Shown: positions 1 through 34,838, counted from the stretch's first letter. The stretch is DNA of 64,000 bases from an uncultured Chloroflexia bacterium (GCA_963751345.1 CAVVUS010000027.1:76354-140353), one strand, 5' to 3'. Made by a program: numbers and translations. Notes: generated from the letters alone by a model not told the origin.

Positions 1-912
1 ACAGCGATCGATCTTGAGATGCAGGAGAGCAACCTGGGCCTCGGCCTGAAGCACTTTGGCTTCGGCAACGGCCACCTCCTCGGCGGTCGGCCCGGCCAAC
101 GTGTCCGTTAACTGCGCACTGGCTACCGCAACCTCGGCGGCGGCGGCATGATACTGACCCTCGGCCGCGTCGGCCTGAGCGATGTAGCCCAGGGGCTTGC
201 TGTGAATCCACCACAACTGATCAAGGAGTGCCTGCGCCGTTCCCTGATCGGCCTCCGCGGCGGCCAGGGCGTGCTCGGCGGCGGCGACCTGGTAGTCCGC
301 AGCCTGTCGTTCCGTCGTGCCCTGGGATTTGATGTCCCTCGTCATCTGAACCTGGGCTAACTGCGCTTCAGCCAGCTCAACCTCCTGCACTGCAAGTGCG
401 ACCTGGGAGCGAGCGTCAACGATTCGCGCCTCCAGATCCAGGGGGTTATCGACCACATCCAGCGCGTTCTGCCATGCCGTGAATAGACCGTCACGCTTTG
501 CCTCGGCGGCGACCACCTTTGCACGCGCAGCCGCGGTCTCCTCGGCCCGCGGCCCTGCGCGCAGCACCTCGAGATCACTACGCGCGACACCGACGGCCGC
601 CTCTGCCTGCAGAAGCTGCAGATCCCACGGGGTCGTATCCAGGGCCACGAGAGCCTCGCCGGCCCGAACTGTCTCACCCTCCCGGACGTTGACGCTCGTG
701 ACCCGGCCGCCGAGTTCGCTGGCCAGGCGGATCTCCGTAGCTCGAATCGTTCCCGACGCCGTCAACGGAGAAAGAGCCGCAGACGGCGCCTGCGGCGCGG
801 ACGTCGTCTGCGGCGTGCCTGCACAACCGGCAGCCAAAAGTGCCACCACTACGCTGATCGCCGACACCACCCTGTGCCGCGTCGACCTCCGACTCACTGC
901 TCCCTCAGTCAT
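1..912 (-). CDS. HlyD-family periplasmic adaptor, probable lipoprotein (3' end runs off the window)
   Basis: Translated by hand from the ATG at 912, which overlaps the upstream stop (ATGA): MTEGAVSRR...LLAAGC (lipobox) ...LTASGTIRATEIRLASELGGRVTSVNVREGE, followed by Ala/Gln-rich coiled coil. Confidence 0.8.
   Translation of the reverse strand, partial: MTEGAVSRRSTRHRVVSAISVVVALLAAGCAGTPQTTSAPQAPSAALSPLTASGTIRATEIRLASELGGRVTSVNVREGETVRAGEALVALDTTPWDLQLLQAEAAVGVARSDLEVLRAGPRAEETAAARAKVVAAEAKRDGLFTAWQNALDVVDNPLDLEARIVDARSQVALAVQEVELAEAQLAQVQMTRDIKSQGTTERQAADYQVAAAEHALAAAEADQGTAQALLDQLWWIHSKPLGYIAQADAAEGQYHAAAAEVAVASAQLTDTLAGPTAEEVAVAEAKVLQAEAQVALLHLKIDRC
781..816 (+). repeat. Family A in-frame micro-repeat, 2 degenerate 18-nt units
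   Basis: agacggcgcctgcggcgc / ggacgtcgtctgcggcgt; encodes TPQTTSAPQAPS just after the lipobox. Confidence 0.5.
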
Positions 913-2536
913 GGCTGGGCGTCCCCTTGGATAAAGCGCACGTCGGCGGGCATACCCGGCTTCAGGAGGCCCTCTGGGTTGTCCAAGTGAAGATCGACGG
1001 CAAATACAAGATTCTCACGCTCCTCGACCGTCGCCACATTTCGCGGCGTGAACTCTGCTTGGTCCGAGATGTACTTCACGTGACCCGTGAAAGTACGGCC
1101 CGGAACGCCATCTGAGGCGCGAACGCCGTCTGAGGCGCGAACGCCATCTACAGTCACCTCAACCGCTTGGCCCAACTGGATCTCGCCCACGCGTGTCTCA
1201 GGGATGTAGACCGTCAGTGTCATATCCGTCAGATCGGCTATGGAGATCAACGGGGCACCCTTCGCAGCGATCTCGCCTGGGTGTGCCAGGATCTCAACGA
1301 CGGTCCCTGAGATCGGGGCTGTGAGCGACAGCATCTCCCGCTCTCTCTGCAGCGCCTCAACACCGGCGTAGACTTGGTCCACCCGCGCTTTGACTGCCGC
1401 TATTTCCTCCACGCTCATACCCGCACGCAACGCGTCGACCCGGGTCTGGGCAAGCACCGCCTGCGCTGCCAGCTGCGCTTGCGCAGACAGCGCCTCATCG
1501 AGCTGTGCCTGAGTGGCCTGGGGGTTGGCCCTCTGGATATAGAGCTGGTTGAGTTTGGCCTCCAACCCATCTACTTTCGCTGCAGCAGCGTTCACCCCGA
1601 CCCACGACTGCCACCATAGGTTCGGAAGTGACTGCGCATCTAGGGGAAAGACAATGTTCTTGTACACATACAGCTCGTAGTTGCCTTGATCCAAGTGGAG
1701 TTCGTAGTCATTGTATGTAAACGTGCGGTCCACAACCCCCGGCAGCACGTCCCCCCAATCGGCCGGCAGCTGGTCGACCAGCTCATCAGGCAGGGCGTCG
1801 GTGATGAGGTCCTGCCACCGTGCCGTTGGCCACCTCGAATTTGTGCCGTCCTCCACCATCAAAACGGATATACGCCTCATCGAACGCAGCTTTCGCCACC
1901 TCCACAGCGTCTTTCTGAGCCACGGCCTCCGCGGCTCGCTCCTGGGCTGCCGCCAGTTGGCCGCGGGTCACCGCAATCTGCAGATCGATATCCTGAGGCG
2001 ACGCAAGCAACGCCTGCGTATCGCTCACGGCACGTTGCGCGGCCACTTGCGCCACCTCAACCTGCGCCAATTGGGCCTCAGCCACCGCAATCTGCCCTGG
2101 CCTGGCGCCCGCTTGGGCCTGTGCGAGTCCAGCCTGCGGCAGCAGCGACCCCCGCTTCGGCGACCGCGATCTGCGCATCGAGCATCGCCGTGTCGAGCTG
2201 GACGACGAGCTGGCCAAGCGCCACCGAATCCCCCTGCCGCGCAGCCACATCAGCCACGAGACCCCCAAACTCACTGGCCACCGAGACCTGCCTGGCCTGC
2301 ATCACGCCCGATGCGGTGAGCGGCGACAGATCCTGCGATACTCCCAGGTCATGTCGCAGTAGTTTGCCGAGCAGAGGCAGGTTGCTCCAAGACACCCCCG
2401 GTATGATGCCGCTCAGATACAATGCAACGGCCCCCATGGCCAGCACGGCCACGACGATCAGCAATCGAACGCCGTCTGAGGCGCGAACGCCGTCTGAGGC
2501 GCGAACGCCATTCGAGGCGTGCCCTCTCCTCTTCAT
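909..2536 (-). CDS. HlyD-family efflux adaptor, split by two frameshifts
   Basis: ORFs 2078-2536 (TM, LTASGVMQARQVSVASEFGG), 1786-2274 (coiled coil) and 909-1880 (LTAPISGTV...AEFTPRNVAT...LKPGMPADV) are consecutive parts of one HlyD protein. Confidence 0.8.
1103..1149 (+). repeat. Family A, 2 units plus partial, in HlyD
   Basis: gaacgccatctgaggcgc gaacgccgtctgaggcgc gaacgccatct; encodes DGVRASDGVRASDGV. Confidence 0.95.
2467..2520 (+). repeat. Family A, 3 x 18 nt, HlyD N-terminus
   Basis: gaacgccgtctgaggcgc x2 + gaacgccattcgaggcgt. Confidence 0.95.
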
Positions 2537-2549
2537 CTCACACTCTCAC

Positions 2550-3560
2550 TCATTCGCGATTTCGCCCACTCGTCGATTCCCGCTTCACCGCCGAGATAAA
2601 GACATCCTCCAGCGTCGGAGCGATCCAGGCAATACCATTCACCGTAACGCCACCCTCTGACAACACCGCCGCTACCTCGGCCTCCGAAGTCCCCGCCGTC
2701 CCGGGCGCCTCAGGCACAACCACGTGGATCTGCGCCCCATAGAGCGCAACCTCCTCGAGCGGGAGCTGCCCCGTATCCTGGGCTGCCGTCAAGATCCTCA
2801 TCGCACCATCGGCATCATCGGTGTCGATCTCAAGTACCCGGCCACGCATGCGGGTCGCCTTTAGTGCATCCGGCGTATCGAGCGCAATCAGCCTTCCCCG
2901 GCTCAGAAAACCGACCCGCTGGCACAGCTCCGCCTCGTCCATATAGTGTGTCGTCACAAGCACCGTCACGCCGCCCTTGGCCATGCCGTAGATCAGATCC
3001 CAGAACTCCCGGCGACTGATCGGGTCGACGCCCGCCGTGGGCTCGTCGAGAAAGACAACTTCCGGCTCGTGCACGATTGCGCACCCAAGCGCCAGCCGCT
3101 GCTTCCACCCTCCCGAGAGATTTGCGGTCAGGGAATGCGCACGCCCCTCAAGCCCGGCCATCTCCAGGATCTGGGTCTCGCGCTGACGTAAGAATGCTCC
3201 TGAAAGCCCATACGCTTGGCCGTAGAAGCGGATATTCTCCATGGCGGTGAGGTCTTTGTAGAGCGTGAAGAGCTGGGACATATAGCCCACGTGAGCCTGC
3301 ATCGCCTTGGCCTGCTTTGAGGGATCATACCCCAAGACGCGCATCTCGCCGGATGTCGGTCGCATGAGCCCGAGTAACATCCGAATCGTCGTCGTCTTTC
3401 CCGCGCCATTGGGTCCCAACCACCCGTAGACCTCGCCACGGTTGACGTGAAAGCTCACATCCTCGACGGCTGTGAAATCGCCAAAGGTCTTGGTGAGATT
3501 GCGGACGATGATCGGGTGCTCCGCATCCGCGCCGTCACGACCCTCGATCCGCGCTCGCCC
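2550..3560 (-). CDS. ABC transporter ATP-binding protein (start uncertain, probably frameshifted)
   Basis: GPNGAGKTT Walker A, LSGGWKQR signature, VFLDEPTAGVD; the frame extends upstream of 3458 as IIVRNLTKTFGDFTAVEDVSF. Confidence 0.85.
   Translation of the reverse strand, partial: GRARIEGRDGADAEHPIIVRNLTKTFGDFTAVEDVSFHVNRGEVYGWLGPNGAGKTTTIRMLLGLMRPTSGEMRVLGYDPSKQAKAMQAHVGYMSQLFTLYKDLTAMENIRFYGQAYGLSGAFLRQRETQILEMAGLEGRAHSLTANLSGGWKQRLALGCAIVHEPEVVFLDEPTAGVDPISRREFWDLIYGMAKGGVTVLVTTHYMDEAELCQRVGFLSRGRLIALDTPDALKATRMRGRVLEIDTDDADGAMRILTAAQDTGQLPLEEVALYGAQIHVVVPEAPGTAGTSEAEVAAVLSEGGVTVNGIAWIAPTLEDVFISAVKRESTSGRNRE
2691..2708 (+). repeat. Family A, single unit
   Basis: ccccgccgtcccgggcgc; encodes APGTAG. 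Confidence 0.65.
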
Positions 3561-3575
3561 CTCATCGCCTCCGCC

Positions 3576-4616
3576 CTACTCGTGGGAGGGCGATCGTCTG
3601 CTTCGTGGAGGCGCTTGCGCCGTCTGAGTCGCTCCGCCGTCTGAGGCGCCTCCGCCGTCCGCGGCGCGTGCCCTGATCAGCGAAATAAAGGCCTCCTCCA
3701 TCCGCGGCGCGATCTCCCGCATCCCCTGGTAGGAGATCCCCTCGGCCGTGAGCGCCGCCTCGATCTCCGGGCGGCGTTGCGCTGGGTCATCCACGAAGAC
3801 GTGAAGCATCACACCATACGTCTGCACCTCCTTCACGCCCGCCAGCCCGGCGACCAGGCGCTTGGCGGGCACAAACGGAGAGGGCACAAACTCCAGGAGA
3901 TGACCGGGCACCATCGTTTTGATGACATCCGGCGAGTCGTGAGCAATCAGCCGGCCCCGATACATCAGGCCGACCCAGTTGCATCGCTCGGCTTCATCCA
4001 TATACGGCGTGCAGACAAAGATCGTGACCCCTTTTTCAGCGCGCAGGCTCCCCAGGAGATTCCAGAACTCGCGGCGACTCACAGGGTCAACACCCAGCGT
4101 AGGCTCGTCCAACATCACGACCTGTGGCTCGTGGATCAGACTGCAGGCCAGCGCCAGCTTCTTCTTCATCCCGCCTGACAGCTGCTTCGCCGGTCGGTCT
4201 GTGAAATCGGAGAGACCTGCGAACCCCAGAAGCTCGGGGACGCGCCGCCGTTGGGCCTCGCGGCTCACGCCCTGGACGTTCGCGAAGAAGCGCATGTTCT
4301 CCATGACCGTCAGATCTCCGGGCAGCGCAAACTGCTGGGCGATGTAGCCCACGCGTTCGCGGATCGCGTAGATATCGCGCATCGAATCATAGCCCAGGAT
4401 CTCGCTCTCGCCGGAGGTCCTGGAGAGCAATCCCAGGATAACCCGCACCGTCGTCGTCTTTCCGGCACCGTCGGGGCCAATCAGTCCATACGTCTCACCG
4501 CGCCGGACCTGGAGCGTGACACCATCAATTGCCAGAACCGGGCCCTGCCGCGTTCGGTATCGCTTCGTCAGATCATGCGTTCGGATGGTTATTGTCCGGT
4601 CCACGAGCCCAGACAC
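3576..4616 (-). CDS. ABC transporter ATP-binding protein
   Basis: GPDGAGKTT, LSGGMKKK, MLDEPTLGVD. Confidence 0.9.
   Translation of the reverse strand: MSGLVDRTITIRTHDLTKRYRTRQGPVLAIDGVTLQVRRGETYGLIGPDGAGKTTTVRVILGLLSRTSGESEILGYDSMRDIYAIRERVGYIAQQFALPGDLTVMENMRFFANVQGVSREAQRRRVPELLGFAGLSDFTDRPAKQLSGGMKKKLALACSLIHEPQVVMLDEPTLGVDPVSRREFWNLLGSLRAEKGVTIFVCTPYMDEAERCNWVGLMYRGRLIAHDSPDVIKTMVPGHLLEFVPSPFVPAKRLVAGLAGVKEVQTYGVMLHVFVDDPAQRRPEIEAALTAEGISYQGMREIAPRMEEAFISLIRARAADGGGASDGGATQTAQAPPRSRRSPSHE
3615..3667 (+). repeat. Family A, 3 units (18, 17, 18 nt)
   Basis: ttgcgccgtctgagtcgc tccgccgtctgaggcgc ctccgccgtccgcggcgc. Confidence 0.85.
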
Positions 4617-4692
4617 TCCTTATCTTGGATACCCGAAACCGGAGAAGGCACTTGACCGTTGGCATATCCACACGTCTAAACGTTCAAACGTC

Positions 4693-5991
4693 TTAACGTT
4701 CAGACGCCGGATAGTGCGTGTAATTACGCAGGTCGACCACACGCCCTGCGTGCGCCCACGGAACGTCAAAATCACGTGGCAGTTCCGACGGCAACACCCC
4801 CTGATCATAGCACGTCTCCAGGGCTTGCTGGAGTCCTTTCACCCAAATCAGGGCGTCGTCCAGTCTGCTGGGCGCGTCATCGTCCAGTCTGCTGGGGGCG
4901 TCATCGCCCCGTGCTTCATGGTTCACCAGGTAATCGGGGAACTCCCCGATCGATGTGACCGACTCCTGTGCTCCATTGACGGCCAGAGTATGCGACATCG
5001 CCGCGCGAATCCCGCATGCCAGCGGCGCGCCGGTGCCATCGCGTGGATCGCCACGCGCCGCGTGGCTGCCACGCGCAGCGTCGATGGCATCCCAGAGTTT
5101 CTGATCCTCGTCGGCGAAGGGATCTCCATAGTCCTTGACGCGCCCGTCCGTGAAGTGCGCGAGAACGGGGTTGCCGTATGCGGCATAATCGACCACGGCA
5201 TCCTCGAACTCGTAGCTCAGCACGGGACCGATGTTCTCGTGTACCGAATGAGATGTATAGAAGAGAATCTCTACGCCTTCCTCGGTATGACACCGCAACG
5301 CGGCCGTATCGTAGTTCTCGATCTCGTTCGCGCGGTAAAGCTCGGCTTGCACGTCGACCGGGCGCGCACTGGTCTCGCGCGTTGGCCCCAGGACGTAGAA
5401 GCAGTTGTGCAGATAGTGGGCCGTCGCGTTGTTGACCGGGCTATCCAGGATCCAATCCCCGTTCGACGCTCGTAACTTGGCAGCCCAGTTGTTGCGACGG
5501 TAGTAGGAGAGGGGCCGAGGCCAGAGCACCTTGGTCCGGAAACGCAGCGGCTTGCCCAGCACCCCGGCCATAATATCGGCCTTCAGCGCCTGCATCGTGC
5601 GCGAAAAGGACCATTGGTAGCCAATCCCGACAAAGCCCTCTGCAGCGTCGTCCGCCTCCGCCATCCGCAAAGCGTCCTGGATCGTCGCGGTCACGGGCTT
5701 TTCACACAAGACGTTCGACCCGTGCGCCAACGCAGTCTCCGTGAAGGGGCGGTGGAGATGGATGGGTGCGGCAATGACCACTAACTCGGCCGAGGATGCC
5801 GCGTAGAAGTGATCCAGATCAGGATAGATCGGAATCTGACGCTCCTGGAATGCGTCCAGGAAGCGACACCCACGCGGATCCGGATCGATCCCGGCGACGA
5901 GCCGGAATCCCTCACGGTCGGAGAACAGGCGTGCGAGATAGGTGTTCCCGTAGCCCCCTAAAGCCACCATCGCGACAGTCACGTCTCTCAT
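4693..5991 (-). CDS. Gfo/Idh/MocA family oxidoreductase
   Basis: MRDVTVAMVALGGYG, VLCEKP motif, GGAGG RBS before the ATG at 5991. Confidence 0.9.
   Translation of the reverse strand: MRDVTVAMVALGGYGNTYLARLFSDREGFRLVAGIDPDPRGCRFLDAFQERQIPIYPDLDHFYAASSAELVVIAAPIHLHRPFTETALAHGSNVLCEKPVTATIQDALRMAEADDAAEGFVGIGYQWSFSRTMQALKADIMAGVLGKPLRFRTKVLWPRPLSYYRRNNWAAKLRASNGDWILDSPVNNATAHYLHNCFYVLGPTRETSARPVDVQAELYRANEIENYDTAALRCHTEEGVEILFYTSHSVHENIGPVLSYEFEDAVVDYAAYGNPVLAHFTDGRVKDYGDPFADEDQKLWDAIDAARGSHAARGDPRDGTGAPLACGIRAAMSHTLAVNGAQESVTSIGEFPDYLVNHEARGDDAPSRLDDDAPSRLDDALIWVKGLQQALETCYDQGVLPSELPRDFDVPWAHAGRVVDLRNYTHYPASER
4857..4904 (+). repeat. Family B in-frame repeat, 2 x 24 nt
   Basis: cgtccagtctgctgggcgcgtcat / cgtccagtctgctgggggcgtcat; encodes DDAPSRLD x2. 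Confidence 0.9.
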
Positions 5992-6505: not shown

Positions 6506-7820
6506 TCATCTGTGGGCCAGGATCATATCGATCCGCAAGATGGCCTCGTGGGTCGCACGCCCCGAATGGTAACACGCCTTCCATGGGTTGCCGATTGCCG
6601 CAACCAGCGGGTCACCGGTCTCGCTCAGCAGCGTCATCCATTCACCCAGTCTATGGTTGATCATATGCTCCCATACGAACGACCAGACAAGGTCGAACGC
6701 CTCGAAGTACTTCGCATCGCCCGTGATCTCATAGGCGTCAAGGTAGCCCACGAGCGCCTCTGCATTCTGCCAGAACTCCTTGTCGCGCACCAGAGCAGGC
6801 CCTGCGTGCGGTCCGTCGCGGTAGACGCCCCCATGCTCGCGGTCGAGGCCATAGGCTAGCGAGTGATCCACCAGATGGCGAACCACGCCTTCATAGGCGT
6901 CCCGTGGCTTGCCCAGCACCTCGCCGGCCCGAACCAGGAGCCAGGCCAACTCCACGTTGTGCCCGTAGGAGGTTGTATCAGTCGGTGCTTCGACCGACTC
7001 GCCCTCGCGGTCGGCGTTCCACGTCCGCCGGATCGCGATTGCCGGGATGGGGCGGAAGTTCAGATCGTACTGGTTACCACCGCAGCCGTTCTCCATATCG
7101 ACCATGTGCGTGAGGATCACGTCGATGACTTCCTGGAGCCGGCGGCGGTGGACCTCTTTGCCGGATGCTTGCGCCAGGACCGTGAAGCATTCCAACAGGT
7201 GCATGTGGATATCCAGCGACTTCCGATCCCCCGCGCAGAAGCCCCCCGGCGAGAGCTGCCAATCGGGCTCCAGGTTCTCGTAGTAGCCGCCGCGAGCGGT
7301 GTCGACACAGTATCGCTGCAGCAGATCGAACGTGCGCTCCGCATAGTCCAAGCCCACGCTCGTCGCCCGTGGCGAGATAATACGTGGCGAGAGCGTAGAT
7401 GGCGAAACTCTGACCATAGACCAGCTTGCCATTGTCGATCATCGTGCCGTCGCGCGCCACTTTCCACGCCCAGCCGCCGTGATCCACATCCCAGAAATGA
7501 TCGATGAAGAAGTCGACGCCCTGGCGTGCGTAGGGGACATAACGATCGTCGTCGGGATCGATCATATGGAAGGTGGAGAATCCCCAGATCAGGCGGGTCT
7601 GCGTGACGATATGCTTATCGAACACCGTCTGAGGCGCGGACGCCGTCCGAGGCGCGGTGTCATCCTCGATGAGTTCGCCGTTGGCATCGAAACAGGTCAG
7701 ATAGCCGCCGTAGTCCTGATCGACACCGCGCAGCGTCCAGAAGGGCATGATCCCCCGGGTCAGGTGCTCCTGTAGCTGTGCACGCGCCGTACGCAGTCGC
7801 TCCTCAATAAGTGTGTCCAC
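6506..7820 (-). CDS. AGE-family epimerase (N-acylglucosamine/cellobiose 2-epimerase-like), one frameshift near 7350
   Basis: YGQSFAIYA, HMHLLE, SYGHNVE, EFWQNAE and WKACYHSGRA motifs across ORFs 7074-7820 and 6506-7432. Confidence 0.85.
7620..7655 (+). repeat. Family A, 2 x 18 nt
   Basis: gaacaccgtctgaggcgc ggacgccgtccgaggcgc; encodes APRTASAPQTVF. Confidence 0.95.
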
Positions 7821-7835: not shown

Positions 7836-9225
7836 CTATGGAAAGAAGTTCGGTAGATTCGCTCGGTGCGCCGCCAGCAGGTCCTCCATCATCGACGCTG
7901 CCACGCCGCGGTCCGTGATCGCGCCATCCAGAAGCAAAGCCTCCACGAAAAGCCTCCGGTCTCCGGTTAGCGCTGCTTCGACCGTGAGACGCGTCGATGC
8001 CAGTCTTCGCGAGATAACGCCTGCCAGCTCATCGGAGAAATCCGGCGTCTGGATCGGCAAGAGGCCAACCGCGCGTCGCGACGGCGGGGATCTCCAGGAT
8101 GGCATCGTCGGGCAGGCTGGGCACAGTCCCCTGGTTGGGCAAGTTGGCCGCGAAAACCTCACGGGTATCGTAGCGAATCGCACGAATGATGTTCAGCAAC
8201 TGCTCATGCTCGCCCACCGTGTGCGTGAAGATCCACGCATCCAGCGGCTCCTCCCCCAATGCCTGGGCTCGCATCCGGGCGTAGTCTCGGTCCCCCGCGG
8301 CGATCGTGCCCTCGAACGAATAGGCATCAACCCCCAGCGTCTTGCCGTAGTAACGTCCACCGGGGAATCGCTCGGGAAAGAACTCCGTGACGTGCCGATC
8401 GTTTGCGGAGGGATACGCTCCATAGGCCTCGAAGAGCGACCAGGAGAACGGATTGTCGATGCCGAAGGTGGAAGGCGAAGCCGAGCCATCGCCCAGTCGT
8501 TCGCGAGCCACAGGCCACATATCGCGCCCGCGCCACCGAAGGTCGTGGATGAAGGTCAGGTGGTTCAGGCCCGCAAAGCGCACCGTCCAGTCTGCTGGAC
8601 GCACCGTCCACGCCGTCTGAGGCGCGTCCGCTGGACGCATCGTCTCCTCCGGGGGTGCCCCCACAAACTGGGCTAGCTGCCGGCTGACGTCGAAAGTGCC
8701 ATGACACAGCCCAATAACGGGCACGCCCGTGGCCTTGCGCACCGCCCAGCAGTTAGCCGTCATCGGGTTGCTGTAGTTGAAAAACCAGGCACGGGGACAC
8801 TGTTCGGCCACGTCGCGGGCGATCCCGACCAGCGCCGGAATCATCCGCATGGCGCGCGAAATACCTCCCGGCATCACGGTGTCGCCTACCGGCTGGTAGA
8901 TCCCGTAGGTCCGCGGGATGAAGACATCGGCTTCCCAGGCGCGACGACCGCCGACGCCGATCGTCGAAACAACGATGTCCGCACCGGGCAGGAGATCGCG
9001 GCGATCTTCGGAGGCCTGGACGTCGATATCGGCGCCCGTCGCCTCCACCATGCGCCGGCTCAGCCCCTCTGCCGTCTCCAGCGCCTCAGGATCGATGTCG
9101 ACAAGGCCCAGCACCCACGGCCCCAGTGCCGGTGACTGGATCAAGTCGGCCACGAGCCCTTTGGTGAAGACCGCGCTCCCGGCACCGATCAGCACGATTT
9201 TCGTGGTACGTTGACGTTCCGTCAT
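7836..9225 (-). CDS. Glycoside hydrolase family 4 (alpha-galactosidase-like), frameshift near 8070
   Basis: KIVLIGAGS, GDTVMPGG, NYSNP, IGLCHG, AGLNH motifs. Confidence 0.9.
8580..8640 (+). repeat. Family B doublet with a nested 15-nt family A core (8611-8625)
   Basis: gcaccgtccagtctgctggac gcaccgtcca[cgccgtctgaggcgc]gtccgctggac; encodes MRPAD-APQTA-WTVRPADWTVR. Confidence 0.9.
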
Positions 9226-10113: not shown

Positions 10114-10214
10114 GTTAGCACATTGAACGTTTGCACGTTCGGACTGTTAGTTTCAACGTGCAAACGTTCAAACGTGCTAACAGCTTGCCCTGTGTATGTC
10201 ACGGGGTCCCAACG
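10114..10214. repeat. Intergenic composite hairpin repeat (ACGT-octamer family)
   Basis: Arms ttgaacgtttgcacgtt / aacgtgcaaacgttcaa, then acgtgctaacagcttgccctgtgtatgtcacgggg; related to 21152-21252 and 26525-26682. Confidence 0.85.
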
Positions 10215-15273: not shown

Positions 15274-18560
<3,287 letters not shown>

Positions 18561-21151: not shown

Positions 21152-21252
21152 CACGTTGACACGTTTCAACGTTGGAACAGCTTGCCCTGAGCGCAGCGTA
21201 GGGGCGGAAACGTGCTAACAGCTTGCCCTGAGTATGTCTCAGGGTTCTAACG
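21152..21252. repeat. Intergenic composite hairpin repeat (ACGT-octamer family)
   Basis: acgttgacacgtttcaacgttggaacagcttgccctgagcgcagcgtaggg...acgtgctaacagcttgccctgagtatgtctcaggg. Confidence 0.9.
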
Positions 21253-22340: not shown

Positions 22341-22383
22341 GTCTCGATCCCGTTCCGCATTCGGATGTGCACACAATCTTGCG

Positions 22384-24384
22384 TCAGGCGTCTTGGCCCA
22401 ACGTCTCCCGCAGGAAGTCGACGATAGCCGGGTAGGCTACCAGCTTGTTCTTCAACTTGGCAACCCCGTGCCCCTCGTCATCGAAGACCAGGAACCTCAC
22501 CGGAATATCACGAGCCTCAAGGGCGGCTACGAGCTGCTCGGCCTCGCTCAGCGGGACCCGAGGATCGTTGCGCCCATGGATGACCATCAGGGGCGCAACG
22601 ACCTGGTCAATGTGGTTGATCGGTGCAATTCGCTCCAGAAAGTCCCGGTCGCGCGCCAGGCTACCGTACTCCGCTTCCCTGTGCGCACGACGATAGCCGC
22701 TGGTGTTCTCCAGGAAGGTAGCCAGATTGCTGATCCCCACGATGTCGACCGCGGCAGCCCACAGGTCGGGATAAGTAGTCACGGCAGAGAGTACCATGAA
22801 GCCACCGTAGCTCCCGCCATAGACGGCGATCCGGCTTCCATCGATCTCGGGACGTGACCGTAGCCAGTATACGGCGTGGGCCAGATCCGCCACCGAATCC
22901 ATGCGCTTCTCCACGTCGTCGAGGTGGCTGTACCGCTTCCCGTAGCCCGTCGACCCTCGCACGTTAGGCACCAAGACGGCGTAGCCGTGGTGCAGCAGGT
23001 ATTGTATGAGAAAGCTGAAACCCGGGCGAGACTGTCCCTCCGGTCCGCCGTGGACGATGACGACGACGGGCAGCCGCGCATCCACCGCCGTAAGGACAGA
23101 GCGCTCGGCGGCCTGTGGCCTGTAGAACCATGCAGGAATCCGCCGCGTCTCGCCGTCCTCGTCGCGATCGAACGTTGGATAATGAACCAGCACGGGATCG
23201 TAGAACGTAGATACCGGCAGGCCTCCATGGGACGACCGCGTTAACGGATGCACCTCGTCCGCCACGAGATCCCAGAGATAGAGATCCGCCGTACGCGTCG
23301 CGCTGGAGAATGAGAAGGCCAGGGCGGTACCATCCGGTGAGAAAGCCAGGGCATCACCAATGACGACACCCATCGCCTCCGGGCCTGATGGGCACTCTCG
23401 TATCTCCCCACTCTCGGTATCCATCAGCACGACCCGATCTGCACCATCCACGTTCACCGTATAGGCAAGCTTCGTCCCGTCTCTCGTGATCGCCAGAGAG
23501 CCGCAATCCCAGTTCGGGGCAGCGATGCGCTCAAGCTTTCCCGACGGTCGGCCGCCCTCAGCCGCAACTCGGCTGTACTCAGCCGCGGCTCGGCTGTACT
23601 CAGCCGCAAGATCCACCCGCGCTACGTACAGGAAATCGGCGTCCAGATCAGTGACCAGATAAAGTGTGTCGCCATTGGGTGCGCTCGCCGTCCGAGGCGC
23701 GCTCGCCGTCCCAGGCGCGGTCGCCGTCCGAGGCGCATAGTGCGGGTAAAGATAGCGCACCGGCGCATCCGAGCCCAGCAGCGTCCTCGCCTCACCTGTC
23801 TCCAGATCGATCTCCAACAGCGTATGATCGAAAGAACTGGCCGTCCTTACGGCAATCACATGCCGTCCATCGGGCGCGAAGACCAGATGCCATAGGTATC
23901 CGCGCGTATCGTTCTGCCAGACACACACGGCCCGGCTCTCGGGCTCGCTCACGTCCTGCACGTAGAGGTCGAAGAGGGCCGGATCCCGGCGGTTGGCGGC
24001 GAAACTGATCCGTTTGCCATCGTCTGACCAACTGCCGAAGAGATGCATCGCGTCCTCAAATCCTTCGGTCAGACATCGGACCGAACCCCGGTCCACGTCC
24101 AGAAGGAAGAGCTGATGCTGCTCGCTGCCTCCCACGTCGCTCACATAGAGTAACCGTCCGTCACCAGGCGCTGGGGAGTAGGCCACTTCGGTGACGCGAT
24201 CTGACGCAAACGACAGCTGATCGGGCCACGGAATGGCGTTGGCATTGACGTCGTCGACGGCAACCTGCCACACCTGTGACAAGCCGGTGATGTCGGTGAG
24301 AAAGGCAACGTGTTTGCCGTTCGCTCGCCAGGTCGCACCATAGGCCTGACGGATATTGAGATAGCGCTCAATCGACCAAGACAT
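22384..24384 (-). CDS. S9 family peptidase (beta-propeller plus alpha/beta hydrolase)
   Basis: VHGGP, PNVRGSTGYG, GGSYGG nucleophile, NDPRVP, DEGH. Confidence 0.93.
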   Translation of the reverse strand: MSWSIERYLNIRQAYGATWRANGKHVAFLTDITGLSQVWQVAVDDVNANAIPWPDQLSFASDRVTEVAYSPAPGDGRLLYVSDVGGSEQHQLFLLDVDRGSVRCLTEGFEDAMHLFGSWSDDGKRISFAANRRDPALFDLYVQDVSEPESRAVCVWQNDTRGYLWHLVFAPDGRHVIAVRTASSFDHTLLEIDLETGEARTLLGSDAPVRYLYPHYAPRTATAPGTASAPRTASAPNGDTLYLVTDLDADFLYVARVDLAAEYSRAAAEYSRVAAEGGRPSGKLERIAAPNWDCGSLAITRDGTKLAYTVNVDGADRVVLMDTESGEIRECPSGPEAMGVVIGDALAFSPDGTALAFSFSSATRTADLYLWDLVADEVHPLTRSSHGGLPVSTFYDPVLVHYPTFDRDEDGETRRIPAWFYRPQAAERSVLTAVDARLPVVVIVHGGPEGQSRPGFSFLIQYLLHHGYAVLVPNVRGSTGYGKRYSHLDDVEKRMDSVADLAHAVYWLRSRPEIDGSRIAVYGGSYGGFMVLSAVTTYPDLWAAAVDIVGISNLATFLENTSGYRRAHREAEYGSLARDRDFLERIAPINHIDQVVAPLMVIHGRNDPRVPLSEAEQLVAALEARDIPVRFLVFDDEGHGVAKLKNKLVAYPAIVDFLRETLGQDA
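23557..23609 (+). repeat. Family D, 2.5 x 21 nt in frame
   Basis: ctcagccgcaactcggctgta ctcagccgcggctcggctgta ctcagccgcaa; encodes AAEYSR(A/V) x2. Confidence 0.9.
23683..23736 (+). repeat. Family A, 3 x 18 nt in peptidase
   Basis: gctcgccgtccgaggcgc gctcgccgtcccaggcgc ggtcgccgtccgaggcgc; encodes [18 protein letters not shown]. Confidence 0.95.
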
Positions 24385-26524: not shown

Positions 26525-26682
26525 AACGTTGACACGTTAGCACGTGTCAACAGCTTGTCCTACCGCAGTTCGGTAGGACTTGCCCTACCGCAGTTCGGTA
26601 GGACTTGCCCTGAGTATGTCTCAGGGTTCAGACATGCTGACGTGCCAACAGCCTGCCCTGAGCGCAGCGTAGGGTGTCAACG
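26525..26682. repeat. Intergenic composite hairpin repeat with 2 x 25-nt tandem
   Basis: cttg(t/c)cctaccgcagttcggtagga x2 (26554-26603), plus the same ccctgagtatgtctcaggg and ccctgagcgcagcgtaggg modules as at 21.2 kb. Confidence 0.92.
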
Positions 26683-27989
26683 CTGACGGTACGCTTGTGG
26701 AACGTAGGGAGCTAGCTGCTGCGCAGCAAAGACTTGGTCGAGCCGCGCGAAACGCTGCCGTCCGTCCACCAACGGGATCGAAGGCCAGCCGTCACCGATC
26801 AAGGGGCGCGCATAGCGAACAAAGTCGTCGGTGACGTCCGTGCGTGATGGCGCGATCCACTTGTCGGGGAAGGTGCGCTCCGAGTTCGCTACGAGTTCCA
26901 GTCCCACCTTGTCGTATCGGACGCTGTAGATCTCGCCCGGCTCGCGCAAGATCGTGGACATATACCCCGACCCGTCCTCGACGGCAATCTGAACGGCCTT
27001 CCAGCCGACGCGGTAGGCCTCCTCCAGGTCGATCGTGGAAGCATAGATGATGTTGTGGCGCTGATCCGTGCCGGGCACGTTGCCCCGCGCCGAGCCGCGG
27101 GCTGCCAGCCCGGCCTCGTTGAGGTAGTTGACCACGATCTGCTCCACGGTCATCTCGCTGGACGAGAACATTGTGTGGCCGAACGAGTCCTTGCGCTCGC
27201 CGATATCGCCAACGTCGAATCCCTCGCTGACCACCACTACGGCGCGACCGCGCACCTTCAGCAGATCGTTGACGGCATCCGTCAGCGCCGGCAGGTCGAG
27301 GTTGGACTCCCGAAGGAAGATCAGCAGCGGCATCTCCCGGTGCGGATCGGCAAGCCGGGCAGCCGCGGGGATAAAGCCGATCTTGCGCCCCATCGCCTGG
27401 ATCACCAGCACCGGATCCGAGGGTGACGAGCCCGCGTTCTCCTGATCTGCGTTCTGGATGTTCAGTGCCCAGTACCGGGCCACGCTCCCATAGCCGGGCG
27501 TATGGTCGATGATCTGGAAGGCACCGCCGTCTGAGTGCGCTGTCCCCCGACATCGTTGTCGATGGTCTTGGGTACGCCCGTGGCCACCAGGTCCAGCCCG
27601 CGCGCCTTCGCCAACTGCGCGACCTTGTGCGCGGTATCCATCGAGTCGTTGCCACCGTTGTAGAAGAAGTAGCCGACGTCGTGGGCCCTGAGCACCTCGA
27701 TGATGCGCTCGAAGTCCTCGGTCTGATTCGCCTTCAGCTTGTAGCGACACGTCCCGATGGCACCGGCGGCAGGCGTTGTGCTGAGCAGGGCAATCTCCTC
27801 GTCGCGCTGGGCGGAAAGATCGAGGAGATCCTCCGTCAACACCCCCTCGACGCCATGGAACCCCGCATACACCGTGCCGAACGTGTCGGGATAGGCCTTG
27901 CAGGCCTCCAGCACGCCGCGCAGTGACGCGTTGATCACCGGCGTAGGACCGCCGGACTGGGCGACGATGACGTTCCTGGGTTTCGGCAT
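26677..27989 (-). CDS. pfp: PfkA-family phosphofructokinase, probably PPi-dependent; frameshift near 27540
   Basis: AQSGGPTPVIN, GGNDS, PKTIDND, DHTPGYGS, MGR, VVVVSEG. Confidence 0.85.
27523..27540 (+). repeat. Family A-like unit at the pfk frameshift
   Basis: accgccgtctgagtgcgc. Confidence 0.7.
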
Positions 27990-28084: not shown

Positions 28085-29566
28085 CTAGGCCTCCCCCGGC
28101 GGGACCTCCATATCCTCCCACACGGTATGGAACGAGCCGTCCTTGTCTACCCGCCGGTAGGTATGCGCGCCGAAGTAGTCGCGCTGGGCCTGGGTAAGGT
28201 TCGCGGGCAGACGCGCGCTCCGGTAAGCGTCAAAGTAAGCCAGGGCCGAAGAGAGTGCCGGCACAGGGATGCCGTTGGCGATGGCGTAGGCCAGGACCTT
28301 GCGCAGGGCGTCCTGGCGCGAGACGACCGCCTGCCCCAACGCCTCGTCCATCAGCAAGTTGTCGAGATCCGGGTTAGCGGCAAAGGCAGCCCGGATGTCT
28401 TCCAGGAGCGTCGCCCGGATGATGCACCCGCCGCGCCAGATCTTGGCGATGTCGCCGAAGTTGAGATCGTAGTCATACTCGGCACTTGCCGTCCGGAGTA
28501 GCGTGAAACCCTGGGCGTAGGAACAGATCTTGGCGACGTAGAGCGCATCCTCCAGCAGGTCGATGAACTCCTTCGCGTCCCCGTCGAATGCCGGCGTGGG
28601 CCCTGAGAGCGCCTCGGACGCCGCGACACGCTCGTCCTTGTACGCAGAGATGATGCGGGCCTCCACCGCGGCGTTGATGGTCGGCGTCGGCGCGCCGACA
28701 TCCAACGCGTCCTGCGACGCCCACTTCCCGGTGCCCTTCTGCTTTGCCTCATCCAGAATCAGATTGACCAGGGGTTTGCCCGTCTCGTCATCGATCTTGG
28801 CGAAGATGTCCGCGGTGATCTCGATGAGATACGACGCCAGCTCGCCCTCGTTCCACTTGGCGAAGATCCGGTGGAGCTTCTTGGCCTTCAGACCCAGCCC
28901 GCGGCGCAGGATATCGTAGGCTTCACCAATCAACTGCATGTCGCCGTACTCGATCCCATTGTGAACCATCTTGACGTAGTGGCCCGCCCCGCGGGGACCG
29001 ATATAGGTGACGCATGGCTCACCGTCAACCTTGGCGGCGATGGCCTCCAGCACCGGGCGCATCCGCTCCCACGCCTCGCGCTGCCCGCCGGGCATAATCG
29101 ACGGGCCCCATAGCGCGCCATACTCTCCACCGCTCACGCCGGTGCCGATATAGCGGATCCCCATCTCCTCCAGTTGCTTGGTGCGCCGCTCGGTGTCGGT
29201 GAAGTGGGAGTTCCCGCCATCGACGAGCAGGTCATCTGGATCAAGAAGCCCCTTGATGTCGCCGATGACCGCGTCGACGGGCTTGCCGGCGGGCACCATC
29301 ATCATAATGCGCCGCGGCTTCTCCAAGAGGTTCACAAAGGTCGCCAGATCGTTCGCCCCGAACAGATTGCGGTGCGTCCCATCGCCCTTCTCCGCATGGC
29401 CCTCGAAGGCCGAGACCTTCTCCGCGTCCAGGTCATAGCCCGCGACACGGAATCCATTGCGCTCCATATTGAGCGCCAACATCTGCCCCATCACGCCAAG
29501 CCCGATGAGGCCAATATCCGCCGTCTGAGGTGCCTCCACCGTCCCAGGTGCATCCGCCTTATTCAT
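28085..29566 (-). CDS. gndA: NADP-dependent 6-phosphogluconate dehydrogenase
   Basis: IGLIGLGVMG, DGGNS, GVSGGE, KMVHNGIEYGDMQ, QKGTGKW, QAQRDYFGAHTY. Confidence 0.95.
   Translation of the reverse strand: MNKADAPGTVEAPQTADIGLIGLGVMGQMLALNMERNGFRVAGYDLDAEKVSAFEGHAEKGDGTHRNLFGANDLATFVNLLEKPRRIMMMVPAGKPVDAVIGDIKGLLDPDDLLVDGGNSHFTDTERRTKQLEEMGIRYIGTGVSGGEYGALWGPSIMPGGQREAWERMRPVLEAIAAKVDGEPCVTYIGPRGAGHYVKMVHNGIEYGDMQLIGEAYDILRRGLGLKAKKLHRIFAKWNEGELASYLIEITADIFAKIDDETGKPLVNLILDEAKQKGTGKWASQDALDVGAPTPTINAAVEARIISAYKDERVAASEALSGPTPAFDGDAKEFIDLLEDALYVAKICSYAQGFTLLRTASAEYDYDLNFGDIAKIWRGGCIIRATLLEDIRAAFAANPDLDNLLMDEALGQAVVSRQDALRKVLAYAIANGIPVPALSSALAYFDAYRSARLPANLTQAQRDYFGAHTYRRVDKDGSFHTVWEDMEVPPGEA
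29516..29551 (+). repeat. Family A, 2 x 18 nt at the Gnd N-terminus
   Basis: atccgccgtctgaggtgc ctccaccgtcccaggtgc; MNKAD[APGTVEAPQTAD]IGLIGLG. Confidence 0.9.
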
Positions 29567-29595
29567 GGTACCCTCCTTCACGTACGAAACTGACT

Positions 29596-33502: not shown

Positions 33503-33544
33503 TACTACTCCTCCGTCGTGAGACCTTTGGGGGTTCTAGTCCCC

Positions 33545-34838
33545 CTACAACAGGATCAAGTCGTTGCGGTGTATGGCAACCGCACCATACGTATACCCCA
33601 GCTCGTCGGCGATCTTATCCGAGTGGCTTCCCTTGATGCGCTCAAGATCATCACTTGGATAGCGTGCGACCCCGCGTGCTATCTCACGGCCCATCCCCGC
33701 AGCAACGGGGCGCTCGCCGGTCTGCTGGCGCCGCCAGCAGCTGGCGGCCCGATCCGCGCACTCCCGTCTGCAGTATACCACCGGAAGCCCCCCTATGACC
33801 TTCACCGCCTTCCTCGAACACCGAGACCGTATCCCCTCGATCGAACGACCCATCCACCGCCACGATACCTGCCGGTAGCAAACTGCGCCCCTCGTAGAGC
33901 AGGGCTTGGGCCGCCCCGTGATCGACGACGATGTGTCCGGTATTCACAGCTCCTGCCAGAATCCAGCGTTTCCGGTTCTCGGGTGGCGTGTCGAGCGCCA
34001 GGAAACGTGTGCCCAACGACTCGCCTGCGGCGATGCGCGAAAGCACGTTAGGTTCACCTCCATCAGCGATGACCACCTCGGTCCCGGCGCGACGGGCGAC
34101 GGTCGCGGCCTCAAGCTTCGTTACCATCCCCCCGACACCCAACCCCGTCTTGCTGTCGCCGGCGAGCGCGCGCAGATTCCCATCGATCACGCGAACCTCA
34201 CTGATGAGCTCAGCTTCAGGGTCTCGCCGCGGGTCAGCGGTGAACAAGCCTTGTTGGTCCGTCAACAAGATCAGCAGGTCCGCATCGGCCAGCACGGCAA
34301 CGAGCGCGGAGAGGTTATCGTTGTCACCGATCTTGATCTCCTCGGTCGCGACCGCGTCGTTCTCGTTGATGATGGGGATGATCTTGTGCTCGATGAGCGT
34401 CTGCAGGGCATCCTGTGCGTTAAGAAAGCGGCCGCGGCTGGCCACGTCGCCCTGCGTCAGCAGAAGCTGTCCGACGTTGAGACCATAGATCTCGAAGAAA
34501 CGTTCCCACATCAACATCAGCCGGCTCTGTCCCACCGCAGCCAGCATCTGCTTTGTGGCCACCGACGCCGTCTGAGCGCGCTGAGGCGCATCCGCCGTCT
34601 GAGGCGCAGATGCCGTCCCAGGCGCGGACGCCGTCCCAGGCGCGCCCGCAACCCCCAACCGCTCGCGACCGGCAGCTATCGCTCCCGAGCTGCACAGGAC
34701 CACCTCGTGCCCTTCCTGCTGCAGGCTCGCACATTGTCGGGCCAGATCCACCATGCGCGGCGGGCTGAGCCGATGGGTACCATCGGTCAGCACGCTCGTG
34801 CCCACTTTCACAACGATCCGTTTGTACTGTAATGCCAC
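33545..34838 (-). CDS. proB: Glutamate 5-kinase with PUA domain; carries two insertions and a frameshift in PUA
   Basis: [37 protein letters not shown]; the C-terminus [10 protein letters not shown]...IHRNDLILL is in ORF 33545-33853. Confidence 0.93.
34563..34643 (+). repeat. Family A, 4 units (27+18+18+18 nt) in proB
   Basis: Encodes [27 protein letters not shown]. Confidence 0.95.

Follow-up and report, generated by a model that had tools for sequence, protein, structure and literature searches.

Small palindromic repeats in bacterial genomes

Among the small repeats of bacterial genomes, intragenic REPs are described, in the sections of Di Nocera et al. (2013, PMC3733652) on which we draw, as elements of 20–40 bp with stems of 6–9 bp and a terminal GTAG or CGTC tag. 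In the same sections, REPs are mostly extragenic and paired head-to-head, head-to-tail pairs being rare, CGTC REPs are presented as lacking a dedicated transposase, and the Rickettsia palindromic elements (RPEs) RPE-4 and RPE-6 are classed as CGTC REPs (PMC3733652). The repeats described here, termed family A, occur in a 64-kb window (the whole stretch of DNA that was analysed) and resemble known small bacterial repeats, but are smaller and differently arranged. As far as those sections report, intragenic REPs are, like family A, small, GC-rich and palindromic, numerous and variable between species, and some lie in ORFs, where they encode extra amino acids (PMC3733652). Family A differs from REPs in having a 15-nt core with a stem of 4–5 bp, CGCC(G/T)/(C)GGCG, and no tag at its foot, in not being predominantly extragenic (at least 69 of 123 arrays lie in ORFs by our own ORF scoring, the other 54 being ambiguous or non-coding), and in being arranged head-to-tail rather than as the inverted doublets of REPs and REPINs.

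RPEs, in the same source sections, are likewise palindromic and sit in frame within unrelated, probably functional genes, to which they add peptides (PMC3733652). Family A shares with them the in-frame insertion into unrelated conserved ORFs whose orthologues are free of the insert. RPE-1, which belongs to another phylum, measures approximately 100–150 bp and is not known to occur in codon-phased tandem arrays, whereas family A units measure 15–18 nt; the two are set apart here by length and description. Elhai et al. reportedly described in 2008 the cyanobacterial small dispersed repeats (SDRs), hairpin-capable elements of a few tens of nucleotides or less that are nested, lie inside conserved genes and have no known transposase. 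Set against these features, family A is nested in repeats and inserted in genes, and no co-distributed enzyme was found, but the sequence families and the phylum are different. The analogies to RPEs and SDRs that a preliminary description of the window had drawn are apt.

In the genome that holds the window (G000), RAYT-like genes with flanking palindromes occur, as in the REPIN-RAYT systems of the consulted part of Bertels and Rainey (2011, PMC3116915), and one of these palindromes holds a family A unit. Unlike REPINs, however, the A units do not cluster around a RAYT gene, and it is other palindrome families that flank the three RAYT-like genes. Coding minisatellites (VNTRs) are, like family A, head-to-tail, their periods are divisible by three and their copy numbers vary between close relatives (by ±18 and ±36 nt between G000 and its sister species G002). 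In a VNTR the unit derives solely from local sequence, but the same family A core stands at 123 places and its 5' half is missing at empty sites. Because one 15-nt core occurs at 123 places in unrelated contexts, slippage alone cannot produce family A.

A 15-nt core and its distribution

Family A is a genuine repeat family, confined to a few lineages within one genus. What stays constant in it is a 15-nt core, GCGCC-T(C/G)(A/G)GAC-GGCG, which has a possible weak stem of 4–5 bp and a CNGA-type loop. The 14-mer CGCCGTCYSAGGCG, allowing at most one mismatch, matched 25 times in the window (24 times on the + strand) against 0.45 expected, and none of 100 shuffles reached 25 matches. Exact matches numbered 17 in the window and 124 in the 5.40-Mb genome, so that 1.2% of the genome holds 14% of the exact copies. 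Tandem Repeats Finder (TRF) reported 18-nt arrays at the loci that had been listed before. The dispersed 15-nt core of the preliminary description is thus upheld as to enrichment and arrays, while two of its loci fall away, that at 781 being a degenerate pair and that at 13907 a member of family D. An 18-nt unit is not the dispersing entity either, since the core is constant while the linker varies in length, with linkers of 2, 3 and 5 nt present in non-coding arrays.

In total, 123 family A arrays were found in G000; a reversed control pattern gave no match against 123 exact copies. Arrays lie close to one another, with a median nearest-neighbour distance of 3.6 kb compared with 14.5 kb under random placement, a value as low as this being reached in 0 of 500 simulations. 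The arrays at 1103 and 2466 have an identical 18-mer; in general, near arrays had a linker in common just slightly more often than distant arrays (5 of 53 pairs vs 4.3%). Multi-unit arrays run head-to-tail with a spacing of 14–20 nt, and one inverted pair was seen (C30:16348/16365). Among 41 relatives, counts were 123 in G000, 160 in G002, 24 in G004, 34 in G012 and 47 in G016, the remaining 36 genomes holding 0–2 copies each. A pattern of tandem pairs matched 26 metagenome contigs, none of 400 other Chloroflexota genomes and no viral contig. Family A has been seen in no organisms other than a handful of related uncultured Anaerolineae. On a single-gene tree, the five unit-rich genomes occupy three positions, and their near-identical core hints at a sequence-specific factor, although none was found.

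Family A in the window

The features described below are assigned to the minus strand, on which all host ORFs of the window's family A units lie. Pfam bore out the host genes named earlier, namely HlyD, two ABC ATPases, GlcNAc 2-epimerase, GH4, GH42M, GHL6, GH2 lacZ, APH, S9 peptidase, PFK, 6PGD and ProB. At 775..815, in the N-terminal region of ORF 1-912, there is a degenerate family A-like pair (TRF, 18 nt x 2.1) with 2-mismatch matches only, one per strand; the G002 site holds a family D palindrome and two A units. In the HlyD-family gene 909-1880, two units and a native seed-like stretch at 1103..1151 read as VDGVRASDGVRASDGVP, and G002 is 36 nt shorter with just GTAGACGGTGTTC. Three units with the linker TTC occupy 2466..2519, at the N-terminus of ORF 2078-2536, where one diverged unit in G002 leaves G000 with +36 nt. 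The ABC ATPase 2550-3458 holds a single unit with one mismatch (2691..2708, APGTAG), in place of which G002 has family D palindromes, and the C-terminal tail of the ABC ATPase 3576-4616 holds three units (3608..3667), the aligned G002 segment having none. In the GlcNAc 2-epimerase gene, two units at 7620..7655 (APRTASAPQTVF) stand against one in G002, G000 being longer by a clean 18 nt. The GH4 gene contains a composite of two 21-nt family B units at 8584..8640, with an A core (8611-8625) nested in the first; in G002 the B unit is single and the A core absent, so that the 36 nt by which G000 is longer equal 21 + 15. The single unit at 14785..14802 (APQTAS), in the GHL6-family gene 14356-15270, is the same in G002.

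In lacZ, three units at 15910..15982, one of them spaced by an extra palindrome, lie in the Bgal_small_N part, with no unit in the aligned G002 segment, and three more at 16345..16399, the first lacking 1 nt, lie at the junction of two lacZ ORFs, where G002 has full-length units. The APH-family gene 21123-22376 has a single unit at 22276..22293 (RRLGRR frame) that is absent in G002 (G000 +18), and the S9 peptidase gene has three units at 23681..23736 against five in G002. A single unit lacking 1 nt (27520..27540) marks the frame break of the PFK gene, G002 having the full unit. The units in lacZ and pfk are each 1 nt short, with the frame broken; these losses are probably assembly errors. Two units at 29516..29555 directly follow the likely start (MNKAD) of the 6PGD gene, where G002 has three, and about 4.5 units at 34563..34643 add 23 aa after residue 64 of ProB.

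Families B, C and D and other hairpin arrays

Family A is accompanied by other hairpin repeats. A family B array of 21 nt x 5.9 (TGCGCCCAGCAGACTGGACGA) at 12756..12878, at a gene end, has about two units in G002 and folds with z = −4.33, which was equalled by 0 of 200 shuffles. The GFO/IDH/MocA oxidoreductase gene contains a family B-like array of 24 nt x 2.1 (4856..4906) and an 18-nt hairpin array (5040..5085, CGCGTGGATCGCCACGCG; G000 +18 vs G002). A family C array of 18 nt x 2.2 (GCGCCAGCAGCCTGGCGG) at 21463..21502 in the APH-family gene is absent in G002 (G000 +36), and a 21-nt hairpin array (CTCAGCCGCAACTCGGCTGTA) at 23557..23609 in the S9 peptidase gene has one unit more (+21) in G002. 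Many further 18- and 21-nt hairpin arrays of unrelated sequence occur in the G000 genome. The loop C(A/G)GA is conserved across families A, B and C.

Family D (CAGACGGGGCnnCGCCCCGTCTCTAC) is a longer palindrome distinct from family A; G000 and G002 share one copy, at 13883..13921 inside the GH42M-domain gene. When the opposite strand is read, family D is GTAG-tagged and REP-like, and in G000 it shows the imperfect palindrome of approximately 20–40 nt with a GTAG/CGTC tag at its foot that typifies REPs. The module CAGACGG is common to families D and A, and in G002 family D is inserted directly after CAGACG.

Folding of family A itself is less evident. The hairpin proposed for it stands as a possible but weak stem: two family A arrays folded no better than shuffles (z +0.25 and −1.0), which leaves a hairpin-driven mechanism thermodynamically unsupported, yet among 24 doubly substituted array units, 7 carried compensatory changes in one stem pair, of 4 distinct types. 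No Rfam family matched in the window.

Turnover between relatives

Empty orthologous sites demonstrate that family A units are lineage-specific insertions which add peptides to otherwise conserved proteins, as had been suggested. The 23-aa insert of ProB is absent from 11 of 11 orthologues; it was modelled as coil with pLDDT < 50 between two helices, and in this model it sits at a tolerant site. At gnd, 10 of the 11 genus members compared have no unit and read ATG..AAGGCAGAT|ATC, G002 being the exception. Conversely, G016 has three arrays at sites where G000 has no unit. Between G000 and G002, which are 84–95% identical, changes of +36, +18, −18 and −36 nt were found and some units occurred in just one of the two genomes; at most window sites G002 departs from G000, chiefly by multiples of 18 nt. 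In contigs from other public runs, one of run X3 skips 36 nt at the S9 peptidase site 23681..23736, and one of run X1 carries an extra G at 27534 in the PFK site.

Reading frame, strand and insertion context

Family A units of the window are translated in three frames (one giving RRLGRRS). Because three frames are used and antisense and non-coding copies exist, conservation acts at the nucleotide level, in agreement with the preliminary description. Its further statement that every copy lies in a CDS and in gene orientation is true of the window only: genome-wide, 49 arrays were sense, 20 antisense and 54 ambiguous or non-coding, as classed by our own ORF and codon-score caller on an assembly with many 1-nt indels. 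A TGA codon in the opposite orientation, also claimed, is present for the TCAGAC loop variant, but the TCGGAC and TGGGAC variants are stop-free in six frames. Among sense units, 38 of 84 had the TCA loop, whose antisense reads TGA, compared with 5 of 31 among antisense units (p = 0.005). Of 46 spacings in ORF-embedded arrays, 43 were multiples of 3, compared with 10 of 25 where the arrays were ambiguous (Fisher p = 1.7e-6), a comparison that is partly circular, as a frame-shifting array could not be classed inside an ORF; one intergenic array had linkers of 2, 3 and 5 nt. With GC skew taken merely as a proxy for replication direction, 90 of the 123 arrays lie on the skew-positive strand (p = 3e-7), which suggests a replication-linked step. 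The earlier caution that gene and replichore orientation could be confounded was right, since orientation tracks the GC-skew strand.

Several observations point to the core, rather than the 18-mer, as the entity that inserts. In the GH4 gene, an exact 15-nt core stands inside a family B unit without flanking duplication; the palindromes H1, H2 and H3 occur both in short-loop forms and in forms whose loop is approximately 15 nt longer and holds a unit; and single units stand at the apex of a palindrome of at least 9 bp in 16 of 123 arrays vs 5 of 2000 random places. The left flank was within two mismatches of GACGGCG in 21 of 123 arrays vs 3 of 123 at an offset used as control; such seed-like flanks are seen, for example, at the HlyD, gnd and C27:76162 sites. 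No general target duplication was found, as the left 3 nt equalled the right 3 nt in 12 of 123 arrays vs 0–5 in offset controls, and arrays with equal flanks were mostly those with degenerate neighbouring units; sites resembling a 3-nt duplication are gnd (GAT..GAT), C13:53953 (TTC) and C34:25941 (AAT). No terminal inverted repeats were detected in family A. Transposable elements of the miniature inverted-repeat type (MITEs) were considered and rejected, there being neither terminal inverted repeats nor a fixed-length target-site duplication.

Alternative explanations

Family A could be a minimal REP-type element that an enzyme with its gene elsewhere in the genome, either a RAYT or an IS200-like HUH tyrosine transposase, cuts and pastes in single-stranded form, a possibility which we regard as unlikely, though the most serious of the alternatives. 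The missing target duplication, the preference for hairpin loops and the replication-strand bias are habits of the IS200/IS605 type, so far as the cited portions of the literature describe them (PMC6006769, PMC3116915). Moreover, HUH and Y motifs are found in three RAYT-like genes of G000, a separate palindrome family flanking each of them; an A unit occupies the loop of the palindrome beside gene 1; and the GTAG-tagged family D has the CAGACGG module in common with A and, in G002, is inserted directly after CAGACG. Gene 1, however, the one of the three whose co-distribution was tested individually, does not follow family A: its best match in unit-rich G002 is 31% identical, with no close orthologue there, and in unit-free G005 61%. 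Matches to PF01797 occur in 17 of 22 genus genomes, units or no units, and the head-to-tail order, the 4–5 bp stem and the lack of GTAG or CGTC at the foot also argue against a REP-type element. To our knowledge, no RAYT/HUH-family substrate has been shown to be as short as 15 nt, and the core falls far below those known. No transposase-like gene was evident among the window host ORFs scanned with Pfam, as previously remarked, and no co-distributed reverse transcriptase was found among the relatives; since the assemblies are 83–97% complete, an enzyme may be missing from them. The term mobile element, in the transposon sense, was not borne out, as target duplication is not consistent, terminal inverted repeats are missing, and the tested RAYT-like gene and reverse transcriptase are not co-distributed.

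It seems improbable that there was no dispersal, with each array arising by local slippage of native sequence and converging on the same 15-mer because its sequence or peptide was favoured, either by a host factor or by biased mutation or repair. Native seeds like the unit's 3' half at empty sites, the unrelated 18- and 21-nt hairpin arrays and the identical core in three separate lineages would suit this reading, but empty sites contain nothing that corresponds to GCGCCTC, the core's 5' half, exact cores lie within a family B unit and palindrome loops, selection on the peptide is excluded by the use of three frames together with copies that are antisense or non-coding, and the reversed control had no copies against 123. 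Equally doubtful is a unit kept as a DNA or RNA signal, such as a protein-binding or processing hairpin, of which coding copies would be functional sites. Compensatory stem changes, the loop shared with families B and C and units at the apex of intergenic palindromes agree with such a signal, and transcription, instead of replication, might underlie the strand bias (the skew-positive strand holds 39 of 54 ambiguous arrays, no different from the gene-strand share, p = 0.21); against it, presence and copy number vary freely at orthologous sites between sister species, close relatives with the same genes lack units, 20 copies are antisense and Rfam found no family in the window. It is scarcely credible that metagenome assembly or sequencing produced the arrays as artefacts, even with 73 1-nt indels in 64 kb vs the sister and two units with frame-breaking 1-nt losses, because the same units with 18-nt spacing occur in five species-level assemblies of 30 to 650 contigs and in 26 metagenome contigs, contigs from other public runs span two sites, and array lengths, unlike those of an artefact, respect the reading frame.

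Proposed origin of family A and its effect on proteins

We somewhat favour an account in which copying carries the core to new sites, slippage then enlarges the array, and only frame-preserving copies survive selection. Seeding would place the core in genes and intergenic DNA as well as in loops, whether these belong to larger REP-like palindromes or to other mini-hairpins, would leave no regular target duplication, and may often set new copies next to native sequence resembling the unit's 3' half (..AGACGGYG NNN). A better fit to such seeding than classical transposition would be template switching guided by microhomology, or ectopic conversion, on DNA that is single-stranded during replication. 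The core and its adjoining linker are then gained or lost head-to-tail, an outcome observed between the sister genomes for which slippage is the presumed mechanism, and hence linkers are particular to each array and sister species differ in copy number. Within genes, the pattern of the arrays suggests that survivors are those that keep the frame, avoid stops and occupy tolerant places. Such filtering would yield the arrangement of a 15-nt core and a 3-nt linker at termini or in loops, with the surviving arrays likely translated as low-complexity inserts of 5–30 aa.

Family A in the Window and Its Host Genes

Family A is a real, lineage-restricted mini-repeat with fast turnover. Its constant part is a 15-nt core, and the unit reads GCGCCT(C/G)(A/G)GACGGCG plus 3 nt in the coding sense, with linkers that vary among arrays and repeat inside an array. 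The motif of the preliminary description proved genuine: CGCCGTCYSAGGCG at ≤1 mismatch matched the window 25 times, 24 of them on the plus strand, against 0.45 matches expected, and 0 of 100 shuffles of the window reached 25. Enrichment was judged against dinucleotide-preserving shuffles and a reversed-pattern control. TRF detected 18-nt arrays in the window where that description had placed them, and 14 of its 16 loci stood; position 781 is a degenerate pair, and 13907 is a longer palindrome of another hairpin family, D. The host genes are indeed unrelated, as Pfam assigns them to HlyD, two ABC ATPases, a GFO/IDH/MocA oxidoreductase, GlcNAc 2-epimerase, GH4, GH42M and GHL6, as well as to GH2 lacZ with Bgal_small_N, APH, S9 peptidase, PFK, 6PGD and ProB. 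Translation of the window units also bore out the use of all three frames (APQTAS/APRTAS/APGTAS; ASDGVR; RRLGRRS).

The minus strand carries all window genes up to 59.6 kb. Beyond 34.6 kb, the window holds no family A unit save two 2-mismatch matches, and G+C content at 40000-56000 is 57-60%, vs 61-64% elsewhere in the window. Rfam at gathering thresholds gave no matches within the window. Three intergenic, AT-richer direct repeats lie between sugar-metabolism genes at window positions 4672-4706 (ACGTCTAAACGTTCAA × 2.2), 10155-10181 (AACGTGCA × 3.4) and 26554-26611 (a 25-nt unit × 2.3); none of them is related to the hairpin families, and they may be operator-like sites.

Genome-Wide Placement and Orientation

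The source genome assembly (5.40 Mb, 49 contigs, 62.8% G+C), in which the window is C27:76354-140353, contains 194 units at ≤1 mismatch in 123 arrays. The earlier claim that every copy lies inside a CDS in gene orientation did not survive this wider count: judged by the ORF that best spans each array, 49 are sense, 20 antisense and 54 ambiguous or non-coding, numbers that inherit the errors of a home-made codon-score gene caller (4187 ORFs, 79% coding). Scored more crudely by their flanks, the arrays divide into 65 sense, 35 antisense and 23 for which neither flank is coding. Many non-coding copies sit within the loop of larger palindromes (H1, H2 and H3), which occur in two forms, one with short loops of 7-11 nt and one with loops about 15 nt longer that hold the unit. 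A perfect palindrome of at least 9 bp flanks 16 of the 123 arrays, all of them single units, vs 5 of 2000 random places.

The caution that gene orientation and replichore orientation were confounded in the window was well placed, since orientation follows the GC-skew-positive strand, which carries 90/123 arrays (p = 3e-7); the uniform orientation in the window therefore reflects one strand of one replichore-like region. Among genes on the skew-positive strand, 43 arrays are sense and 12 antisense, vs 6 sense and 8 antisense among genes on the other strand, and thus the sense fraction differs by gene strand (p = 0.018). The fraction of arrays on the skew-positive strand does not differ by gene strand (78% vs 57%, p = 0.17). 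The arrays are clustered, with a median nearest-neighbour distance of 3.6 kb vs 14.5 kb at random (0/500 simulations as low), and the window is the densest region. Linker sharing among neighbouring arrays is weakly raised (5/53 vs 4.3%).

Array Spacing, Folding and Related Repeat Families

Core-to-core spacing is a multiple of three in 43 of 46 cases in ORF-embedded arrays (18 nt in 39 of the 43) and in 10 of 25 in ambiguous arrays, where a spacing of 17 nt is seen ten times and one of 20 nt three times (p = 1.7e-6). The test has some circularity, since frame-shifting arrays are necessarily excluded from the ORF-embedded class. Linkers of 2, 3 and 5 nt were seen in one intergenic array that we inspected. 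Two family A arrays, at 13168-13212 of contig C395 in the unit-rich relative G004 and at C11:416148-416177 of the source genome, have a 15-nt period, with cores that lack a linker. Genome-wide, 18-nt arrays number 122, vs 90 for six non-3n periods combined, and a stem of at least 4 bp is found in 70% of 18-nt units vs 37% of shuffled units. Hairpin folding of family A is unremarkable (z +0.25 and -1.0), and folding of a family B array is exceptional (z -4.33). A compensatory change in one stem pair, of four distinct types, was present in 7 of 24 doubly substituted family A units in arrays, where the rough expectation is about 0.3.

Family B (CGCCCAG-CAGA/CGGA-CTGGGCG, 21-nt period) and family C (CGCCAG-CAGC-CTGGCG) resemble family A in their outer stem and type of loop, and A and B units alternate in one 36-nt array. 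Families D and A have the module CAGACGG in common; on the other strand, family D is a GTAG-tagged, REP-like palindrome. The genome census also listed the abundant palindromic 14-mers AACCTTGCGAAGGT (79 copies) and AAACCCCAAAGGTC (61 copies), and a CRISPR-repeat-like word ending in GTGCGTGGATTGAAAC (37 copies).

Empty Sites, Turnover and Distribution

Family A inserts are derived. The expected empty sites were found in ProB, where 23 extra residues of the window protein are missing from 11 of 11 aligned orthologues, and in 6PGD, where 10 of 11 genus members compared read ATG..AAGGCAGAT|ATCGGC; the units lie exactly at the bar, occupying 36 nt in the source genome and 54 nt in its sister species, G002. 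The 586-aa "6PGD" ORF is over-extended at its 5′ end (window 29557-29845): the genus alignment puts the true start at MNKAD, relatives have a stop upstream of that start together with a ribosome-binding-like GGAGG, and the first 95 residues correspond to the tail of the upstream gene read in a different frame.

The whole window is collinear with G002 at 84-95% identity, and unit differences were read from a site-by-site alignment. The source genome is longer at window positions 1103 (+36), 2466 (+36), 7620 (+18) and 8608 (+36) and shorter at 29516 (-18) and 23681 (-36); units at 3608, 15910 and 22276 have no counterpart in the aligned G002 segment, and a single unit is common to both species at 14785 and at 27520. 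Arrays 1103 and 2466, which are 1.3 kb apart and share the same 18-mer, are both expanded in the source genome only. Arrays of other hairpin families likewise differ between the two species (5040, 12756, 21463 and 23557). The reverse case was also observed: three arrays of another unit-rich relative, G016, lie at sites where the source genome has no unit. In the S9 peptidase array, 36 nt are skipped in a contig of another public run (one contig, low depth).

The core occurs 123 times in the source genome, 160 times in G002, and 24, 34 and 47 times in the relatives G004, G012 and G016, vs 0-2 times in each of the remaining 36 relatives searched; the reversed control pattern gave 0-1 matches per genome. 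A tandem unit pair was found in 26 metagenome records; the 400 other Chloroflexota genomes and the viral contigs searched gave none. The five unit-rich genomes occupy three places on a 6PGD tree, requiring three changes, at least two of which are forced by well-supported branches; this distribution is provisional because the tree is of a single gene.

Assembly Quality and Frame Breaks

Alignment of the window with G002 (contig C2) revealed 73 isolated 1-nt and 11 2-nt gaps in 64 kb, many within conserved genes, which looks like residual indel error of long-read assemblies. Such error would account for lacZ and PFK each being split between ORFs and for the truncation of the epimerase and of the PUA domain of ProB. 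The frame breaks in lacZ and pfk, in the epimerase and at the ProB C-terminus are therefore not reliable biology. Frameshifts at arrays (lacZ, pfk, C10:40523, C11:434316, C15:2726 and C8:43195) were set aside as biology given this indel load. G002 has intact units at both window frame-break sites (lacZ and pfk), and a contig from run X1 carries the base that the source assembly lacks in pfk, which brings that gene back into frame. Public DNA runs shared ≤0.19 of sampled words, were compared as contigs only and leave parts of the window without cover. A run of about 52 A near C24:32260, absent from G002, and the homopolymer 14-mers common in the source assembly (14 C 135 times, 14 A 84 times) may be assembly artefacts.

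Possible Mechanisms of Spread

The arrival of cores at new sites, the change of arrays in steps of whole units and the keeping of frame in coding arrays are all observed. We infer three steps, namely seeding, then slippage, then filtering. In seeding, the core would spread by microhomology-guided template switching or by ectopic conversion on single-stranded DNA. Sequence at empty sites or beside arrays often looks like the 3′ half of the unit, such as GTAGACGGTGTTC in HlyD, AAGGC(A/G)GAT in gnd (the 6PGD gene) and CAAGACGGCAGG at C27:76162, and in 21/123 arrays the left flank matches GACGGCG with at most 2 mismatches, vs 3/123 at a control offset. These near-seed flanks and empty sites, together with the 18-mer shared by arrays 1103 and 2466, favor template switching or ectopic conversion. 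The contrast in spacing between coding and ambiguous arrays is a sign of filtering by translation. A second sign is that the TCA loop, which is TGA in antisense, is scarce among antisense units (5/31 vs 38/84 sense, p = 0.005), partly through ascertainment, and a third is that inserts sit at termini or in low-confidence coil between two helices (ProB model, mean pLDDT just 63).

The main rival is seeding by an HUH-type, RAYT-like route. The source genome has three RAYT-like (Y1_Tnp) genes with HUH and Y motifs (C19:139446-139973, C23:278874-279758 and C19:22201-23094), each beside its own abundant palindrome family (AGTGCCGGGGAC.., GCGGGCGTCTCGCCCGC and GCGGATCTGTGATCCGC, respectively), and one of these flanking palindromes carries a family A unit in its loop. 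However, RAYT-like gene 1 is not co-distributed with the units, as its best match in G002 has 31% identity and that in the unit-free relative G005 has 61%, and PF01797 is matched in 17 of 22 genus genomes whatever their unit content. The 14-mer GCGGATCTGTGATCCGC was counted 66 times, and next to the corresponding gene its family is arrayed in a tandem cluster with a period of about 164 nt. Classical transposition that leaves a 3-bp target duplication (15 + 3 = 18) was suggested by gnd and rejected as the general case: matching flanks occur in just 12/123 arrays, most of them degenerate neighbouring units, and a 15-nt core lies in a family B unit without duplication. By inspection, we also rejected a fold-back origin from a native seed, since the reverse complement of GACGGCG is CGCCGTC and the observed sequence is CGCCTCA. 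A reverse transcriptase or retron route was dropped, PF00078 having no match at E ≤ 1e-5 in G000 (the source genome), G002, G004 and G016, a result to be read as "not found" rather than "absent" because these assemblies are 87-96% complete.

A bolder proposal, which we consider rather unlikely, is that the 15-nt core is the smallest self-propagating bacterial DNA unit yet seen, continually remodelling housekeeping proteins without its own transposase, or else that it is driven by a sequence-specific enzyme moved among three genus lineages. Self-propagation would proceed through template switching, coupled to replication, with single-stranded loops and microhomologous sites as targets; a transferred enzyme would account for a core that is identical between hosts although their 6PGD proteins differ by 20-30%.

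Relation to Known Repeats and Significance

The nearest kinds to family A are intragenic REPs, RPEs and SDRs. Family A is like them in being small, having palindromic potential, lying in frame in unrelated genes and having an unclear mobilising enzyme; it is unlike them in its 15-nt core, its head-to-tail codon-phased arrays, and its lack of a GTAG or CGTC foot and of inverted doublets. Features of intragenic REPs and of REPIN-RAYT systems follow PMC3733652 and PMC3116915. The literature search found no such units reported in Anaerolineae or Chloroflexota; the intragenic-REP list in Additional file 3 of PMC3733652 could include similar short units.

In practical terms, the arrays make gene calling harder, and they are places where long-read metagenome assemblies show frame errors. 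The difference between coding (multiple-of-three) and non-coding (17 and 20 nt) spacing offers a simple sign of selection on a neutral repeat-generating process, and the inserts would provide a natural experiment on protein tolerance of insertions and on the birth of low-complexity segments. If our reading holds, these Anaerolineae would show how small a dispersed repeat can become: a 5-codon core that is seeded widely, grows by codon-sized steps, differs at most orthologous sites between species just ~10% apart, and adds loops of 5-30 residues to ProB, 6PGD, PFK, S9 peptidase, ABC ATPases and other proteins.
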